Source: Candidatus Woesearchaeota archaeon
Lineage (GTDB): Archaea; Nanobdellota; Nanobdellia; SCGC-AAA011-G17; GW2011-AR20
Length of the DNA stretch: 64,000 nt
Assembly (NCBI GenBank): GCA_964359725.1
Contig: CAYHTT010000001.1
Span: forward strand, 14,618-78,617
Direction: 5' to 3'
The translations under genes were made by a program, and so were the position numbers. Below the pieces are notes generated by a model, which ran no database searches, was not told where the DNA came from, and was given only the letters and a program-made list of their open reading frames with translations. Shown here in pieces: positions 13,614-64,000 of the stretch. Within the stretch, counting starts at the first letter, position 1; every line of letters begins with the position of its first letter.

Positions 13614-15482
13614 ATGAAATCGTTTAATTTTAAAACCACAGCAGAAATAAAAATTCCGACTAATATAATTGATCAAATAGTTGGACAAGAGCAAGCTGTT
13701 AACATAGTTAGGAAAGTAGCAAAACAAAGACGTCATTTATTATTGATAGGACAACCTGGCGTGGGAAAAAGTTTAGTGGGACAAGCTTTAGCAGAGTTAT
13801 TACCCGAAGAAAAATTAGTTGATGTGCTAGCTTACCAAAATCCAGCTGATGAAAATATTCCTTTAATAAGGATGGCACCAAAAGGCCAGGGTAAAAAAAT
13901 AGCCGCAAGAGCAAAAATTCAGGAAATGTCCTCTTTAAAAAATCAGAATGTTATTTTCTTTATATTATTAATTTTAGCCTTAATTGCACCATGGTGGATT
14001 AGAAAAAGTTATGGTGATATAATGGCAGCAGCCTCGTTAATCGGGAGCATGATGTTTTTAGCAGCATTTGTATTATTTATTAATTTAAACAAAAGGGTCG
14101 CTCTTAGAGGTATGGAAATTAGAGCGCCAAAAATTTTAATAGATAATTCCTCGACGGAAAAAGCACCATTTATTGACGGTACTGGTAGTCATTCCGGCGC
14201 ATTACTTGGTGATGTACTTCATGATCCACTTCAAAGCGGCGGACTGGGCACACCCGCTTACGAGCGTTTAATTCCCGGAATGATTCATAGAGCAAATGGT
14301 GGAGTATTATTTATTGATGAAGTAGCAAATTTAAATCCTAAATCTCAACAAGAATTACTTACAGCATTACAAGAAAAAAAGTATTCTATTACTGGACAAA
14401 GCGAGAGAAGCTCTGGTGCAATGACTAGAAGCGAACCTGTTCCATGCGATTTTGTTTTAGTTGCTGCGGGTAATCCCGAAACTGTTAGAAACATGCATCC
14501 TGCTTTACGTTCTAGAATACGTGGTTATGGTTACGAAGTTTATATGGGGCATGAGCTAGACGATACAGAAGAGAATAGAATGCATCTTGCAAAATTTGTT
14601 GCTCAAGAAGTTGTTAAAGATGGTAAAATACCTCATTTTACAAGAGAAGCTGTTTTAAAAATAATTGAAGAAGGTAGAAGAAGAGCTAGTACTTCTGGAA
14701 AATTAACATTGAGATTAAGAGAATTAGGTGGATTAGTAAGAGCAGCTGGTGATTCAGCATTAGAAGAAAAATCAAAATTTGTTGAACCAAAACATATTGA
14801 TAAAGCAAGATTATTAGCAAGAACATTAGAACAACAAATGGCTGATAAATATATTGAGCAGAAAAAACGTTATCAAGTTATTACAACTACAGGCTATTTA
14901 GTTGGCAAAGTTAATGGGTTAGCTGTTATGGGATCAGAAGATCATTTTTCTGGAATAGTACTTCCAATTGAATCAGAAGTTACACCCGGTGGAAGAAAAG
15001 CAGAGTTTATTGCTACAGGTCAACTTGGTAAAATAGCAAAAGAAGCTATAAAAAATGTTTCAGCTATCATATTAAAATACTTTGGTGAAGATATTAAAGA
15101 AAAATATGACATCTTTATACAATTCTTACAAACAGCAGATACAGGTGTTGAGGGTGATTCAGCTAGTATATCAGTAGCTACAGCAATTGTTTCAGCATTA
15201 AAAAAAGTTCCTGTAAGGCAAGATACAGCAATGACTGGTAGTTTATCTGTTAGGGGAGAAGTATTAGCTATAGGAGGAGTAACAGCAAAAATAGAAGCAG
15301 CTATAGAAGCAGGCATAAAAAGAGCGATTATTCCAAGAGCTAATGAAAAAGATGTTTTATTGAGCAAGGAACATCAAGGTAAAATTGAAATTATTCCAGC
15401 AAGCACAATCCAAGAAGTTTTAAAGCACGCTTTATATTGGAAAGGTAAAGAACATATATTAAGAAAATTAAAATCAAGATAA
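13614..15482 (+). CDS. lon: Archaeal membrane-bound Lon protease (LonB)
   Basis: AAA+ Walker A (GQPGVGKS) and a two-helix membrane insertion ([14 protein letters not shown]...FLAAFVLFI) inside the ATPase domain. The C-terminal S16 domain has the catalytic Ser ([16 protein letters not shown]) and a downstream Lys. There is no intein. Confidence 0.85.
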
Positions 15483-27795: not shown

Positions 27796-27883
27796 GGGCC
27801 CTTAGCTCAGTCTGGTAGAGCACTTGAATAAAATGGTGAAGCTCTTAACCAAGGGGTCGTGGGTTCAAATCCCATAGGGCCCG
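27796..27883 (+). tRNA. tRNA-Lys(CUU) with a 14-nt intron at a non-canonical position (between nt 30/31 of the anticodon stem)
   Basis: Acceptor GGGCCCT/AGGGCCC, D-arm GCTC-AGTCTGGTA-GAGC, T-arm GTGGG-TTCAAAT-CCCAT. Removing AATAAAATGGTGAA gives the anticodon arm CTTGG-CTCTTAA-CCAAG with anticodon CTT. No CCA is encoded. Confidence 0.65.
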
Positions 27884-30988: not shown

Positions 30989-33052
30989 ATGACTGAAATA
31001 ATAATAAGTGAGAAGCCAGCATCAGCATTGAAAATAGCAACAGCTTTAGCAGACGATAAAGTTGTTAAAAAAAATAATAAAAAAGTTCCTTATTATGAAA
31101 TTACTCATAAAGGTAAGAAAATACTAGTCTTATGTGCAGTTGGTCATCTGTTTGGCTTAAAAGAGACAAATGGAAAAGGATGGATTTATCCTATCTTTGA
31201 TTATGACTGGCAACCTATTTATGAGGTTAATAAAAAAGCAAAATACACTAAAGATTATATTGAAACAATTAAAAAATTATCAAAAGATGCAGATAAATAT
31301 TATAATTTTTGTGATGTAGATACAGAAGGAGAACTAATTTTTAGAAATATTTTAAGATTTATTTGTAAAAAAGAAGATGCAAATAGGGCTTATTTTTCAA
31401 CTCTGACTAAAAATGACTTAGTAAAGGCCTTTGAGAATGTTAAACATCATATCGATTTTGGATTAGCCGAAGCTGGGGAAACTCGTCACATACTTGATTG
31501 GCTTCACGGTATCAACTTATCAAGAGCACTAACGTTAGCAATAAAAGCAGCACAAGGTGGATTTAAGGTTCTGTCTATTGGAAGAGTTCAAGGCCCAACA
31601 TTAAATCTAATTGTTCAAAAGGAAAAAGAAATTTTAGCATTTAAACCAGTTCTATATTGGGAAATTTCATTAACAGGAAAGGTTGATAAGAAAGAAATTA
31701 TTGCATGGCATAAAAATAATGAATTCTGGAAAAAAGAAGATGCAGAAAAAGTCATAAAAAATGTTAAAGGTAAAAAAGCGATTGTTCAAAGTATCAAGGA
31801 ATCTGAATTAAAACAAGCAGCACCATTCCCATTTGACTTAACAACACTACAATTAGAAGCTTATAGGAATTTCGGAATTAATCCTAAAGAAACTTTAGCA
31901 ATTGCTCAAAGTTTATATGTTAATGGATTAATTAGTTATCCTCGTACTAGTTCACAACAAATTCCAGATTCAATTGATATGAAAGAAATATTCACTAAAC
32001 TATTTGATTCAAAGTATAAGGATTTAGTAAAACAATTATTAAAAACGAAATTAATTCCAAATAATGGAAAGAAAACAGATCCTGCGCATCCTGCTATAAT
32101 AATTACTGGAGAAATTCCGGAAAAATTACAAGAACGCGAGAATAAAATTTATGATTTAATTGCCAAAAGAACGTTTGCAACATTTGCAGATCCTGCTAAA
32201 CGTAGATCATTAATAGTCGAAATAAATTGTAATAAAGAAATTTTTATTGCTAAAGGTATCTTAACAACATACCCTGGTTGGCATTTATTTTATTCTCCTT
32301 ATGTTGATCTAAAAGAAATTGAATTACCAAGTTTAGAAAAGGGGCAAGAAATTTTAAATCCTAAATTTGAGTTGTTTGAAAAAGAAACTCAACCACCGAG
32401 ACGTTATTCTCCCGCATCTTTAGTTAAAGAACTCGAATCTAGGCATTTAGGTACAAAAGCCACAAGATCTAATATCATCGATACTTTATATGATAGACAA
32501 TATATAGCAGAACAAAGTATTCGAGCTACAGAATTAGGAATTAAAACTATAGAAACTTTAGAAAAATATTCTCCTGAAATTATTGATGAAAACTTAACTC
32601 GTGAATTTGAAGAAGAAACTGAATTAATTGAAGAAGGAATGAAAACAAAAGAAGAAATCGTTGAGAAAAATAAAAAAATTTTACTTAAGATACTAGAAAA
32701 GTTCAAAAAAAATGAATTAAATATTGGCAAGGAATTAGCAGAAGCAAATAAAGAAACAAGAGATAAAGCAAGTATTGTGGGAAAATGTCATAAATGTAAA
32801 ATTGGAGATTTAAGAATATTATATAATAGAAATAGTAAAAGTTATTTTATTGCATGTAACAAATATCCAGAATGTAAAACTACTTTTTCAATGCCAAAAT
32901 ATGCTTTACCTAAACCAAACGATATATGTAAAGAATGCAATTATCCTAGATTAAAGATGATTAGAAAGGGTAAAAGACCATATGACTTTTGTATAAATCC
33001 AGAATGTCCTTCTAGAAAAAGATATTTAGAGCAGCAAAATAATAATTATTAG
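30989..33052 (+). CDS. topA: DNA topoisomerase, type IA (topo I/III)
   Basis: N-terminal Toprim (IISEKPSAALKIA). The active-site Tyr lies in GLISYPRTSSQ. The C-terminus has Zn-ribbons (CHKCKIGDL...CNKYPECKTTFSMP, CKECNYPRL...CINPECP). Confidence 0.8.
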   Translation: MTEIIISEKPASALKIATALADDKVVKKNNKKVPYYEITHKGKKILVLCAVGHLFGLKETNGKGWIYPIFDYDWQPIYEVNKKAKYTKDYIETIKKLSKDADKYYNFCDVDTEGELIFRNILRFICKKEDANRAYFSTLTKNDLVKAFENVKHHIDFGLAEAGETRHILDWLHGINLSRALTLAIKAAQGGFKVLSIGRVQGPTLNLIVQKEKEILAFKPVLYWEISLTGKVDKKEIIAWHKNNEFWKKEDAEKVIKNVKGKKAIVQSIKESELKQAAPFPFDLTTLQLEAYRNFGINPKETLAIAQSLYVNGLISYPRTSSQQIPDSIDMKEIFTKLFDSKYKDLVKQLLKTKLIPNNGKKTDPAHPAIIITGEIPEKLQERENKIYDLIAKRTFATFADPAKRRSLIVEINCNKEIFIAKGILTTYPGWHLFYSPYVDLKEIELPSLEKGQEILNPKFELFEKETQPPRRYSPASLVKELESRHLGTKATRSNIIDTLYDRQYIAEQSIRATELGIKTIETLEKYSPEIIDENLTREFEEETELIEEGMKTKEEIVEKNKKILLKILEKFKKNELNIGKELAEANKETRDKASIVGKCHKCKIGDLRILYNRNSKSYFIACNKYPECKTTFSMPKYALPKPNDICKECNYPRLKMIRKGKRPYDFCINPECPSRKRYLEQQNNNY

Positions 33053-33816
33053 AAAGCATACTTCATAGCTTCTTGAATATTATTTACTCCAATCACCTTT
33101 AAACCATATTCTTTTTCAAAATACTCTATAACATTAATTTCTTTAGGTACAAATCTTGTACTTGTAATTACTAAATTACCAACTTTTCTCTTAGTTGTTT
33201 GTGGTTCATAATAACGGAATATAGTTTCACCAGCAGGTATTAAATATAATTCAAGATTATTATTAGCAACAGCCTCCCCTTTTTCTATTACTGCTCCTAC
33301 TTGTCCTATCTCACCATTAGGTAAAATTGTTCCCGTAATTCCAATATTTTTTAACTGTTTATTTTGTAAAGCAGCAATAGTTGCAAGAGTCATAGAAGCA
33401 CCAGCACTTGGTCCACCAACAACCGTGCCATTAATATCAAAATCATAAATTATATTTTTATCTTCTAAATTAATTCCTGTAATATTACTAGCAACTAAAG
33501 CAGCTATGTTAGCACTAAATTGTGTATCTGGCTCAAGAAAAGGATTTGTATTAATTAATATTTTACCATTACCTTGTGTAATTTCAACTTCAACTTTACC
33601 AAGTAAACCTTGCCTGTTTTGATCTACAGCTATGACATTAGTAGTCGATTTTAATAATGTGGTATTTATTGGCAAACTAATTCCACTCTTTTCAACTTCT
33701 TTTATTTCATTTTCTTTAATTTCACTTGGTTTATAAAATATTAAAACAGCTAATAAAAATCCTAATAAAAAAGTTAGTACATAAACATGAAATTTATTTC
33801 TTTTCTTTCTTTTCAT
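33049..33816 (-). CDS. Membrane-anchored Lon-like S16 peptidase domain protein
   Basis: N-terminal TM helix (VYVLTFLLGFLLAVLIF). The S16 catalytic Ser motif is GGPSAGASMTLATIAAL, and the downstream Lys lies in VGAVIEKGEAV. It overlaps the upstream radB-like gene by 4 nt. Confidence 0.6.
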   Translation of the reverse strand: MKRKKRNKFHVYVLTFLLGFLLAVLIFYKPSEIKENEIKEVEKSGISLPINTTLLKSTTNVIAVDQNRQGLLGKVEVEITQGNGKILINTNPFLEPDTQFSANIAALVASNITGINLEDKNIIYDFDINGTVVGGPSAGASMTLATIAALQNKQLKNIGITGTILPNGEIGQVGAVIEKGEAVANNNLELYLIPAGETIFRYYEPQTTKRKVGNLVITSTRFVPKEINVIEYFEKEYGLKVIGVNNIQEAMKYAF

Positions 33817-34418
33817 TTTAATATTATTCCTTTGTCCTGAATTTCAAATAAACTTTCTTTATTAACAGGTTTTTCAATAATTAATTTTCTAGGGTCTTTC
33901 TCAAGCCTTATTAAATTATCTGCTAGATTTTTAACCAAGTTACCACCAACCATGCTTATGTCGTCTAATTTAAAGCTTTCATAAACTTGGTTTGTTATTA
34001 AAATAATTGTATTTTTATTATTAAGTTCTTTTAATATTCTAAAATCCTTTTGAACACGTTTATTTGTTACAAAAGATTCTTGTTTCAATTCCATTCTATA
34101 ATACTTTCCTAGACTATCAATAACAACTAATTTAAGATTATTTAAGTTAGCTAATCTTTTAATAGCTTCATGTTGTTGGATAAAATTATTTGCTTTAATT
34201 AATAATATATTTTTTAAGCATTTATCATAATCATCATGAGAAATTTGTTTAAACCTTTCTATTGAAAAACTATTTTCTGTATCTATGAATATTACTTTGC
34301 CTAGTTTAGAATAATTATATACAAGCATTAATGCCAAAGTTGTTTTGCCAGTAGCTGCTTTTCCATAAACTAAATTTATTCCCGAATTAAAATTTATTAA
34401 ACTTAAAATATCATTCAT
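33813..34418 (-). CDS. radB: RadB-like RecA-superfamily ATPase
   Basis: 201 aa. VYGKAATGKTTLALMLV (Walker A) followed by KVIFIDTENSFSIERFKQI matches the RadB pattern YG..GSGKTTLALQ...KV.YIDTEG.FS.ERL.QM. Walker B is LVVIDSL. Confidence 0.65.
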   Translation of the reverse strand: MNDILSLINFNSGINLVYGKAATGKTTLALMLVYNYSKLGKVIFIDTENSFSIERFKQISHDDYDKCLKNILLIKANNFIQQHEAIKRLANLNNLKLVVIDSLGKYYRMELKQESFVTNKRVQKDFRILKELNNKNTIILITNQVYESFKLDDISMVGGNLVKNLADNLIRLEKDPRKLIIEKPVNKESLFEIQDKGIILK

Positions 34419-34515: not shown

Positions 34516-34887
34516 ATGCCAGACATATTTGAAACAACTATAATATGTGATAATTGTGATAGAAAAACAATAAAGAATCAGTTCTATAAAGAGGGATTTC
34601 GAATTAGAATTTGGGAATGTCCTAATTGCGGTAAGCGTTGGTATCATCCAGAAGATAAGCAAGATTACGAAGATTTTCACCAACTAAAGCAAAAACAATT
34701 TCAAGTTAAGTTGAGAATGGTTGGTAACTCATATACTGTTTCAATACCTCGCGAGATTATAGATTTTGAAGAAGAATTTAATCGTGAGTTTAATAAACTA
34801 TTAAATTTAACATTAGAAGAACCAGGTAAAGTTTCAATATTTTTCAATAAGAGAATTAGAAAGATTTTTAATAATAAGGAACAATAA
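34516..34887 (+). CDS. Zinc-ribbon plus AbrB/SpoVT-like swapped-hairpin DNA-binding protein
   Basis: CDNCD...CPNCG ribbon. VKLRMVGNSYTVSIPREI resembles the AbrB/MazE swapped-hairpin. Confidence 0.4.
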   Translation: MPDIFETTIICDNCDRKTIKNQFYKEGFRIRIWECPNCGKRWYHPEDKQDYEDFHQLKQKQFQVKLRMVGNSYTVSIPREIIDFEEEFNREFNKLLNLTLEEPGKVSIFFNKRIRKIFNNKEQ

Positions 34888-37200: not shown

Positions 37201-37475
37201 ATTTTATTTTTCCTTTTAATTTTATTATAAATGAAAATTATTAGACAAGAGATTAAATACCAGAATATTATATCAACAAAAAAATTCAAAACTGAGAATG
37301 GCGGAGCAACTTCAGACATTTCAAATCCAGTGCTAACAAAACTCTTTATTGGCCAAAAATATAACGGCCATCCACCATACCCATATGTTAGATTACTAGA
37401 AAACCAGGTCGAAATAATTATCAATATAAAGAATAAGATAACTTTTACAATTGTTGGTTTCAAAAATTCTTTCAT
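37197..37475 (-). CDS. Small membrane protein
   Basis: 92 aa with two hydrophobic helices. It is preferred over the antisense ORF 37231..37539 because it abuts the downstream CBS gene by a 4-nt overlap. Confidence 0.3.
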   Translation of the reverse strand: MKEFLKPTIVKVILFFILIIISTWFSSNLTYGYGGWPLYFWPIKSFVSTGFEMSEVAPPFSVLNFFVDIIFWYLISCLIIFIYNKIKRKNKI

Positions 37476-37906
37476 AAATATTCTTTTCTTAATTTTTTAC
37501 TTAAATATTTTAAAACAAATTTCTTTCTTTGTTTTGTAAAATAATCAATTAATGTTGATTGTGAAATAAATCCAACAACTTTATTATTTTTAACAACAGG
37601 ATAACGTTTAAAGCCCTTTTGCTGCATCATCTTGCTTGTATAATAAATATTAGCATCTGGATGAATACCTTGTACAGGACTTGTCATTATATCTTTAGCT
37701 TTAGTTTTTCTAGGATTTAAATTTTTTGCTATAACTCTTTTAACCATATCTCTTTCTGTAATAATGCCTAGAGGTTTTTTATTTCTGCCAACTATTATAA
37801 CAGCTCCAATATCTCTTACACCCATAACCTTAGCAATTTTATTAACACTAGAATCCGGACCAAAAGCAGTAATTTTTTTTACCATTATATCTTTAACAAT
37901 ATCCAT
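37472..37906 (-). CDS. CBS-domain pair protein
   Basis: Two CBS repeats (IMVKKITAFGPDSSV...GAVIIVG...GIITERDM; IMTSPVQGIHPDANI...RYPVVKNNKVVGFISQSTL). Confidence 0.6.
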   Translation of the reverse strand: MDIVKDIMVKKITAFGPDSSVNKIAKVMGVRDIGAVIIVGRNKKPLGIITERDMVKRVIAKNLNPRKTKAKDIMTSPVQGIHPDANIYYTSKMMQQKGFKRYPVVKNNKVVGFISQSTLIDYFTKQRKKFVLKYLSKKLRKEYL

Positions 37907-63771: not shown

Positions 63772-63857
63772 GCCCCGGTAGCTCAGTCTGGTAGAGCACA
63801 TGGCTGTTAGAGAATGTAGAAACCATGCGGTCGTCGGTTCAAATCCGGCCTGGGGCG
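63772..63857 (+). tRNA. tRNA-Asn(GUU) with a 12-nt intron at the canonical 37/38 position
   Basis: Acceptor GCCCCGG/CTGGGGC (one G-U), the same D-arm as tRNA-Lys, anticodon stem CATGG/CCATG, and T-arm GTCGG-TTCAAAT-CCGGC. Removing GAGAATGTAGAA leaves the loop CTGTTAA. An alternative excision giving Tyr-GUA is less canonical. Confidence 0.6.
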
Positions 63858-63860
63858 CTT

Positions 63861-63936
63861 GGGGCTGTAGTTCAGCCTGGTCTAGAACGCTACTCTGATA
63901 AGGTAGAGGTCGGAAGTTCAAATCTTCCCAGCCCCA
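63861..63936 (+). tRNA. tRNA-Ile(GAU), intronless
   Basis: Acceptor GGGGCTG/CAGCCCC, D-arm GTTC-AGCCTGGTCTA-GAAC, anticodon arm CTACT-CTGATAA-GGTAG, T-arm GGAAG-TTCAAAT-CTTCC. It lies 3 nt after tRNA-Asn. Confidence 0.8.
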
Positions 63937-64000
63937 CTTTTTATTATAAAATGAAAATCTTATTTATATGTAGAGCAAACTTACAAAGAAGTCCTACAGC

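Follow-up and report, generated by a model that had tools for sequence, protein, structure and literature searches.

A radB-like gene and an overlapping gene for a membrane-anchored S16 protease in a Woesearchaeota genome: a probably fortuitous, lineage-restricted neighbourhood

In a 64,000-nt stretch of a Candidatus Woesearchaeota genome (assembly GCA_964359725.1, contig CAYHTT010000001.1, positions 14,618 to 78,617 of the forward strand; the whole stretch is called the window), a radB-like gene (33813..34418, minus strand) encodes a core-only ATPase of the Rad51/RadA fold with a length of 201 amino acids (aa). Downstream of it lies the gene of a standalone 255-aa serine protease of the S16 (Lon-fold) type (33049..33816, minus strand), which is composed of a signal anchor at the N-terminus and a full Lon proteolytic domain (P-domain). 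The stop of the former and the start of the latter share the 4 nt ATGA at 33813..33816 (minus strand; the plus strand reads tcat). In this DPANN (Nanoarchaeota) genome, which is very compact, the two are likely to be functionally unrelated housekeeping genes that are probably transcribed together, and their lineage-restricted neighbourhood would be fortuitous. At the junction where radB and topA converge, the protease gene is present only in part of the lineages of a single clade.

The original prediction, made from the sequence of the window, had described the two open reading frames (ORFs) and their 4-nt overlap. Both are confirmed, and all motifs quoted in it are present, namely LVYGKAATGKTTLAL...KVIFIDTENSFSIERFKQI in the radB-like ORF as well as GGPSAGASMTLAT and VGAVIEKGEAV in the protease ORF. 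It had further read the pair as a split RadA/Sms arrangement, which is not borne out, as neither module shows Sms-specific similarity and the linkage is not conserved. A function of the pairing in repair-protein turnover or membrane recruitment, which it had also proposed, is unsupported, since the adjacency is patchy and the predicted topology separates the two proteins.

Conservation of the Gene Pair

The survey from the RadB side drew on metagenome-assembled genome (MAG) and metagenome contigs, and the presence of the protease was scored at the locus. The clade shares a conserved block PolB-MetAP-CBS-CDC48-(118-137 aa ORF)-RadB, which is followed by the convergent genes for TopA and a metallophosphoesterase. 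Over about 120 related loci in all, the neighbourhood of RadB and the protease is patchy and lineage-restricted. The protease gene follows radB in 6 of the 15 sampled lineages of the RadB clade, namely in the window (TopA identity 100%), in L006/7 (TopA identity to the window 80%) and in L012 to L015 (~53%). It is missing after radB in nine lineages, i.e., in L001-3 (TopA identity to the window 70%), L004-5 (56%), L008-9 (88%, partial), L010-11 (81%), L111, L112, L113, L114, and L115. Among them are very close relatives in which the synteny of the flanks is identical. In those protease-minus relatives in which topA still lies downstream, radB itself reaches into the 3′ end of topA, with an overlap of ~4-21 nt.

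A different arrangement was observed in L008 (4627..7270, minus strand) and L009, whose TopA is 88% identical over the part seen. Here, the radB/topA junction holds four other genes and no protease gene, namely three ORFs (201, 86, and 226 aa) that have no Pfam match and a gene for a glycosyltransferase of family GT2. The radB/topA junction seems to be a hotspot of gene insertion and replacement.

A search of metagenome contigs with an alignment of RadB-like proteins yielded 19 confirmed loci among the matches listed, 16 of which are more distant RadB loci, and in none of these 16 does the protease gene adjoin radB. In a neighbour-joining (NJ) tree of TopA, the protease-bearing loci form two separate clades, one with the window and L006 and one with L012-14, and protease-minus loci lie between them. 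The protease gene would thus either have been gained twice at the radB/topA junction or lost several times, and the NJ trees of TopA and RadB fit both courses. Under two gains and several losses alike, the linkage of RadB and the protease is dispensable.

From the protease side, a search of genome contigs with the protease family confirmed at least 539 relatives among the 600 pattern matches listed. The best 80 species-representative loci were kept, and the neighbours were identified by hidden Markov model searches of all ORFs in these loci. A RadB-like gene is located directly upstream of the protease gene in four of the best 80 loci, L012 to L015 only. Among these 80, their proteases are the closest to that of the window (45-48% identity), and all four loci belong to Nanoarchaeia or Woesearchaeota-type MAGs. 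The original prediction had allowed that an adjacency absent from related genomes would be fortuitous; it is missing from 76 of these 80 protease-bearing species genomes, from 9 of the 15 lineages of the RadB clade and from all 16 distant RadB loci. One further candidate, L069 from a Methanophagales MAG, was judged fortuitous: its RadB gene lies 2.5 kb from the protease gene and on the other strand, and two unrelated ORFs (188 and 437 aa) separate the two.

No universal partner of the protease was found when the neighbours at up to two positions on either side were clustered in 74 of the best 80 loci, as no cluster comprises more than eight loci. Recurrent neighbours are Gar1 in eight Methanophagales and related loci, Kae1/TsaD in seven Iainarchaeum-type loci, and V-ATPase B/D in four loci. 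The genes next to the protease gene in L017 code for small proteins with a signal anchor.

In six Aenigmatarchaeota-type loci (L065, L067, L073, L078, L079, and L086), a gene for an M50 metalloprotease lies directly downstream of the S16 gene and in the same orientation. This neighbour is a polytopic membrane protein of ~200 aa with HExxH and LDG motifs; in L065, taken as representative, it reaches 31.9 bits with Pfam Peptidase_M50 and the two genes overlap by 8 nt. In L021, a Woesearchaeota MAG, the protease gene lies among small toxin-antitoxin-like ORFs and an ORF for a 351-aa P-loop protein which reads like Orc1/Cdc6, as judged by sequence reading.

Significance of the Gene Overlap

Overlapping genes are common in the window. 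Among 38 same-strand neighbour pairs, 11 overlap, in eight cases by exactly 4 nt, and a distance of no more than 20 nt is found in 20. Likewise, 4 of the 14 convergent pairs overlap by 4 nt, the protease gene and topA among them. Since 4-nt overlaps are this frequent, the one between radB and the protease gene would reflect genome compaction. The radB-like and protease genes are probably co-transcribed, and the overlap says no more than that. The translational coupling named in the original prediction is not a special feature, given that 8 of the 38 same-strand pairs share the 4-nt overlap.

Identity of the RadB-Like ATPase

The 201-aa ORF probably represents the orthologue of RadB, a recombination mediator, in DPANN archaea and is best named RadB-like or divergent RadB. 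Its best NCBIfam model is RadB (TIGR02237) with 136.7 bits over residues 14-198 (profile positions 14-209/210), which is below the equivalog cutoff of 172.4 bits. The scores of other NCBIfam models are 68.0 and 52.8 bits for RadA, 49.9 bits for Dmc1, 18.5 bits for KaiC_arch_3 and 18.0 bits for Sms (TIGR00416). In Pfam, Rad51 reaches 49 bits (cutoff 22) and KaiC 22 bits. The original prediction of a RadB-like ATPase and not a KaiC protein is upheld by these profile searches (136.7 bits for RadB vs. 18.5-22 bits for KaiC), but with a score that does not reach the RadB cutoff. In ten homologues across the clade, RadB is the best model throughout (115-163 bits), none of them attains 172.4 bits, and they grade continuously into sequences named RadB by the Joint Genome Institute (JGI). 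Because these homologues likewise score best with RadB yet below the cutoff, the group looks like a fast-evolving DPANN RadB clade and not like a separate family.

The AlphaFold2 (AF2) model of the protein shows a single RecA-like core (predicted local distance difference test, pLDDT, 92.7). Its top 50 fold matches in the PDB are all RadA/Rad51/DMC1 cores with a query-normalised TM-score (TMq) of 0.74-0.85, and the top single-domain PDB sequence match is RadB of Thermococcus kodakarensis (2CVF). By direct sequence reading, the Walker A motif or P-loop (GKAATGKT, residues 19-26) is encoded at 34341..34364 and the Walker B strand (KLVVIDS, residues 96-102, with the invariant D101) at 34113..34133, both on the minus strand. 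G19, G24, and K25 of Walker A, D46, the catalytic Glu E48, D101 of Walker B, and Q144 are invariant across 33 RadB-like homologues, which fits a working ATP site as in RecA-family ATPases in general.

The ATPase could also be another protein of the RecA superfamily, such as a KaiC-like protein, aRadC or a generic AAA ATPase, and a repair framing would then be moot. In this direction point the score under the equivalog cutoff (136.7 < 172.4) and the NCBI name, since the protein is identical (100%) to a Nanoarchaeota MAG protein annotated as 'AAA family ATPase'. Furthermore, the N-terminal G..LD.LLGGG motif is gone in the sub-lineage of the window, in protease-plus and protease-minus relatives alike, though it is still carried by L013, L015, and P0112. 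Such an identity is nevertheless very improbable, as RadB leads the other profiles by ~68 bits with the KaiC models at 18-22 bits, the clade homologues score best with RadB and are continuous with JGI-named RadB sequences, and all top fold matches as well as the best single-domain sequence match lie in the RadA/Rad51/DMC1 group and in RadB, respectively. KaiC and aRadC were rejected on these profile margins and fold matches.

In Haloferax volcanii, RadB is a mediator which promotes the polymerisation of RadA, and RadA-mediator activity together with DNA binding is established for RadB of H. volcanii and Thermococcales (PMC5480776). By homology, the divergent, cytosolic, core-only RadA paralogue of the window would aid the loading and polymerisation of RadA on single-stranded DNA. 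The position of its gene between CDC48 and TopA is conserved in relatives.

The Standalone S16 Protease

The second ORF was described in the original prediction as a protein with one N-terminal transmembrane (TM) helix and a Lon domain with both catalytic residues, and this description holds in every part. Pfam Lon_C matches residues 129-195 with 27.9 bits (gathering threshold 21.1), and with a family profile, the region matched to LonB structures spans residues 59-195. The catalytic Ser137 (codon AGT at 33406..33408, minus strand, within GGPSAG) aligns with the Ser of the 'G(D)SA' motif of LonB P-domains, and the catalytic Lys179 (codon AAA at 33280..33282, minus strand, within IEK) aligns with the Lys of the LonB motif 'ggv.eK'. 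Both residues are invariant in an alignment of 31 diverse family members. Against PDB sequences, the family profile finds the P-domains of archaeal LonB first (1XHK, E 4e-16; 1Z0E, E 1.5e-15), followed by LonA, and no RadA/Sms chain at E<=0.01.

The AF2 model of the protease (pLDDT 88.1) comprises a helix (residues 6-27), a disordered linker (29-49), and a full Lon P-domain. Foldseek aligns it to the P-domains of E. coli Lon with E ~1e-12 and a target-normalised TM-score of 0.78-0.80, whereas the P-domain of RadA (5LKQ) is found at rank 41 of the fold matches with a root mean square deviation (rmsd) of 8.1.

In the C-terminal half of the modelled P-domain, a long two-stranded β-hairpin was observed at residues 199-228 (strands 199-212 and 215-228, pLDDT > 90). 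The aligned Lon chains are shorter (178-198 residues) compared to the 204-223 alignment columns of the protease. According to the model, this hairpin is a family-specific feature.

The 255-aa protein consists of the TM helix, the linker and the P-domain only: no AAA+ module was found by Pfam, NCBIfam or in the AF2 model, and the Pfam scan gave no match to a PDZ domain. As no AAA+ module is fused N-terminally to the P-domain, the protein does not belong to the ATP-dependent Lon A, B or C groups. A canonical archaeal membrane LonB of 622 aa with AAA+ modules, LonB_AAA-LID and Lon_C (115 bits) is encoded elsewhere in the window (13614..15482, plus strand), so the 255-aa protein is an additional, ATPase-less paralogue.

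The protein is identical (100%) to a Nanoarchaeota MAG protein annotated as 'S16 family serine protease' and belongs to a family of more than 200 archaeal proteins with the same architecture, a length of 240-280 aa and 34-71% identity to the protein of the window. Hosts are Aenigmatarchaeota, Micrarchaeota, Iainarchaeum, Nanohaloarchaea, Methanophagales (ANME-1), Methanocellales, and others. Some members bear the JGI label 'predicted S18 family serine protease'; based on the names given by JGI, we take the family to be COG1750. In the literature, no paper was found on COG1750, on a standalone archaeal S16 protease family or on a link between RadB and a protease.

Membrane Topology and Possible Substrates

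The protease contains a single hydrophobic segment, residues 9-27 (FHVYVLTFLLGFLLAVLIF; 33736..33792, minus strand), with a mean Kyte-Doolittle hydropathy of 2.49 and no second one. It coincides with the helix 6-27 of the AF2 model and is preceded by MKRKKRNK, while the 15 residues after it are net acidic. Across 116 family members, the mean net charge is +2.2 on the N-terminal flank and -0.5 on the C-terminal flank, and the N-terminal flank is the more positive one in 80%. By the positive-inside rule, the protease is predicted to be oriented N-in/C-out with an extracytoplasmic catalytic domain. If this topology is correct, the protease cannot contact the cytosolic RadB.

A comparable protein is YlbL of Bacillus subtilis, in which a Lon domain is joined to a TM anchor and no ATPase is present; it 'likely resides extracellularly' (PMC6051672). 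SepM is termed 'outer surface protease' in the title of a bioRxiv preprint. Owing to its signal anchor and the predicted outward catalytic domain, the protease of the window would most likely cleave proteins of the envelope or secreted ones and need no ATP for this, with a mechanism like that of YlbL and SepM and not like that of Lon or Sms. An envelope role can also be inferred from the signal-anchored neighbours in L017 and the M50 neighbour in Aenigmatarchaeota. The recurrent pair of S16 and M50 membrane proteases fits such a role better than the link to RadB does.

Functional Relation of the Two Genes

Several points weigh against a purely fortuitous neighbourhood. The sampling consists of MAG and metagenome contigs, and the pair-lacking genomes were scored at the locus, so these may carry the protease gene elsewhere. 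The outward topology has the charge-bias rule as its single basis, and ~20% of the family do not show the bias. The same-strand overlapping pair occurs in six lineages which form two separate clades of the TopA tree with ~53% TopA identity between them, and it persists where the upstream flank is replaced (L013 and L015). This persistence could reflect selection for co-expression.

One such link would be indirect, with an outward-facing S16 protease that is co-expressed with RadB in a response to DNA damage or replication stress and clears a membrane-bound checkpoint or division inhibitor, as YlbL (DdcP) does with YneA. YlbL, with its TM anchor, Lon Ser-Lys dyad and lack of an ATPase, is likely extracellular and has a role in the recovery from the DNA-damage checkpoint (PMC6051672). 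The predicted topology is compatible with this idea, the operonic tie places the protease gene with radB in a block rich in replication and repair genes (PolB, CDC48, and TopA), and the SepM family model NF041438 gives a weak match (E 8.7e-9). However, the tie to RadB is seen only within one clade, where few lineages have it and close relatives do without it, the same protease family adjoins unrelated genes in other archaea, the protease lacks a PDZ domain, and no candidate gene for a membrane-bound inhibitor was found at the locus. To our knowledge, no SOS-like damage regulon has been established for DPANN archaea, which also counts against it, and the indirect link appears unlikely.

A more far-reaching form, in which the radB-S16 operon is a functional unit, would be an archaeal analogue of YlbL/DdcP-YneA. 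Here, the outward-facing, ATP-independent protease would be co-expressed with RadB and, after the onset of repair, remove an inhibitor of the cell cycle or of division that is anchored in the membrane, or else a factor for host contact. The recurrence of the pair in two TopA clades would be due to selection and not to inheritance. This form is decidedly unlikely.

A direct partnership was weighed as well, i.e., a membrane-tethered machine of the Sms or Lon kind with the RadB-like ATPase and the protease as its two components, the protease facing the cytoplasm and serving repair-protein turnover or the membrane recruitment of RadB. The genes are overlapping and on the same strand, the pair is kept in six lineages including the deep L012-15 and across flank rearrangements, and the Ser-Lys dyad is intact. 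Moreover, RadA/Sms shows that a RecA-like ATPase can work with a Lon-like domain (PMC4357459). Against this, the adjacency is missing in 76 of the best 80 protease genomes and in 9 of 15 RadB-clade lineages, and the predicted N-in/C-out topology parts the two proteins. The protease profile matches the P-domains of LonB and LonA and no Sms chain at E<=0.01, with 5LKQ at rank 41 (rmsd 8.1), and the ATPase ORF reaches 18 bits on TIGR00416 and has neither a C4 zinc finger nor KNRFG. The features of RadB do not track the protease either, as the N-terminal truncation is common to protease-plus and protease-minus relatives. Such a machine is very improbable. In an interaction network of Pyrococcus abyssi, a CBS protein and DNA ligase are reported as partners of RadB and no protease is listed. 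A reading as a defence system was dropped, since the PADLOC matches are marginal (mad8 with 25 bits; BrxL and CRISPR-Lon with 15-17 bits).

The reading as two unrelated neighbours requires no new mechanism at the locus, and it means that gene overlap is a poor guide to function in streamlined DPANN genomes. A functional pairing would provide a first indication that a protease is connected with recombination proteins in archaea, and a protease family that is widespread yet unstudied would thereby acquire a role. The more useful by-product is the description of the standalone archaeal S16 family itself, which is found across DPANN, Methanophagales, and Methanocellales and is characterized by one N-terminal anchor, a full Lon P-domain whose Ser-Lys dyad is invariant, the additional β-hairpin, and a domain that probably faces outward. 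Together with its M50 protease association in Aenigmatarchaeota, it is the most useful lead.

Genomic Context

The window has a GC content of 28% and is ~91% coding. The locus lies in a block rich in replication and repair genes. On one side, the protease gene overlaps topA (30989..33052, plus strand) convergently by 4 nt at the 3′ ends (33049..33052), and SerRS and a metallophosphoesterase are encoded on the same side. On the other side, genes for a 123-aa Zn-ribbon protein, CDC48, a CBS protein, MetAP, and PolB are located.

The 123-aa ORF (34516..34887, plus strand) contains two CxxC pairs (Zn ribbon) and a stretch, VKLRMVGNSYTVSIPREII, which reads like an AbrB/SpoVT swapped hairpin; no match was found in Pfam or PADLOC. 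In most sampled relatives, an ORF of 118-137 aa with no Pfam match on record is likewise located directly upstream of CDC48 and divergent from radB. The 123-aa ORF may encode a small transcription factor for the CDC48 unit. In L112 (1..2058, minus strand), the radB-adjacent CDC48 orthologue has a length of 1325 aa, and one of its AAA domains contains an intein (PF14890, Intein_splicing).

A standalone CBS-pair protein of 144 aa is encoded at 37472..37906 (minus strand), and it is also present within the PolB-MetAP-CBS-CDC48-RadB block of the relatives L007, L008, L010, and L011. The CBS-domain protein Pab0961 of P. abyssi was reported to be associated with RadB, and its homologue in H. volcanii with RadA and RadB (PMC3820547).

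In addition, two tRNA genes of 87-88 nt (27796..27883 and 63772..63858, both plus strand) reach the Rfam tRNA threshold, while ARAGORN gave no isotype. They are probably intron-bearing or otherwise atypical archaeal tRNAs. The second one is followed by a normal tRNA-Ile(GAT) gene at 63861..63937.

Comparison With Known Systems

Bacterial RadA/Sms (TIGR00416) shares with the locus a RecA-like ATPase and a Lon-fold domain, which are merely juxtaposed as separate genes in the window. No C4 zinc finger is present, as the ATPase ORF has one Cys and the protease ORF no Cys after the TM helix, and direct reading of the ATPase ORF revealed no KNRFG (KNRxG) motif. TIGR00416 scores 18 bits on the ATPase ORF, compared to a cutoff of 403, and does not match the protease ORF. 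The P-domain of the window differs further in that it retains the catalytic Ser and is membrane-anchored, and the linkage of the modules is not conserved. The contrast drawn by the original prediction, that the Lon-like domain of Sms has lost the catalytic Ser, is fair, in that the putative active-site Ser of E. coli RadA is reported to be dispensable (PMC4357459). Membership in RadA/Sms fails on every testable feature, and the resemblance is one of juxtaposition only.

With archaeal RadB, the ATPase shares the RecA/Rad51 core of ~200 aa without an N-terminal helix-hairpin-helix (HhH) domain, the Walker A and B motifs, and the conserved Glu and Gln. It differs in three respects: the protein of the window and all sampled DPANN homologues stay under the equivalog cutoff, the LD.LLGGG motif is lost in the sub-lineage of the window, and the gene is located between CDC48 and TopA, in contrast to radB of Pyrococcus, which we take to lie within the cdc6-polD operon, as was also stated in the original prediction.

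The P-domains of archaeal LonB and of LonA (MEROPS S16; 1XHK, 1Z0E, and 1RR9) have the same fold as the protease (target-normalised TM-score 0.75-0.80) and the same Ser-Lys dyad motifs. Unlike these, the protease of the window has no AAA+ module, its anchor is a single N-terminal helix and not an insertion in the ATPase as in LonB/LonA, its catalytic domain is predicted to be extracytoplasmic, and it carries the long β-hairpin 199-228. Compared with the family presumed to be COG1750, it is a typical member, and the only notable difference is its RadB neighbour.

Like the protease, the bacterial proteins YlbL/DdcP and SepM (NF041438) are anchored by an N-terminal TM helix, carry a Lon domain with a Ser-Lys dyad, lack an ATPase, and are presumed to act outside the cytoplasm. 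The protease of the window differs from them by the lack of a PDZ domain and reaches only 34.8 bits on NF041438 (cutoff 200, E 8.7e-9). The likeness to YlbL and SepM is probably an architectural convergence and not orthology, the family of the window being archaeal.

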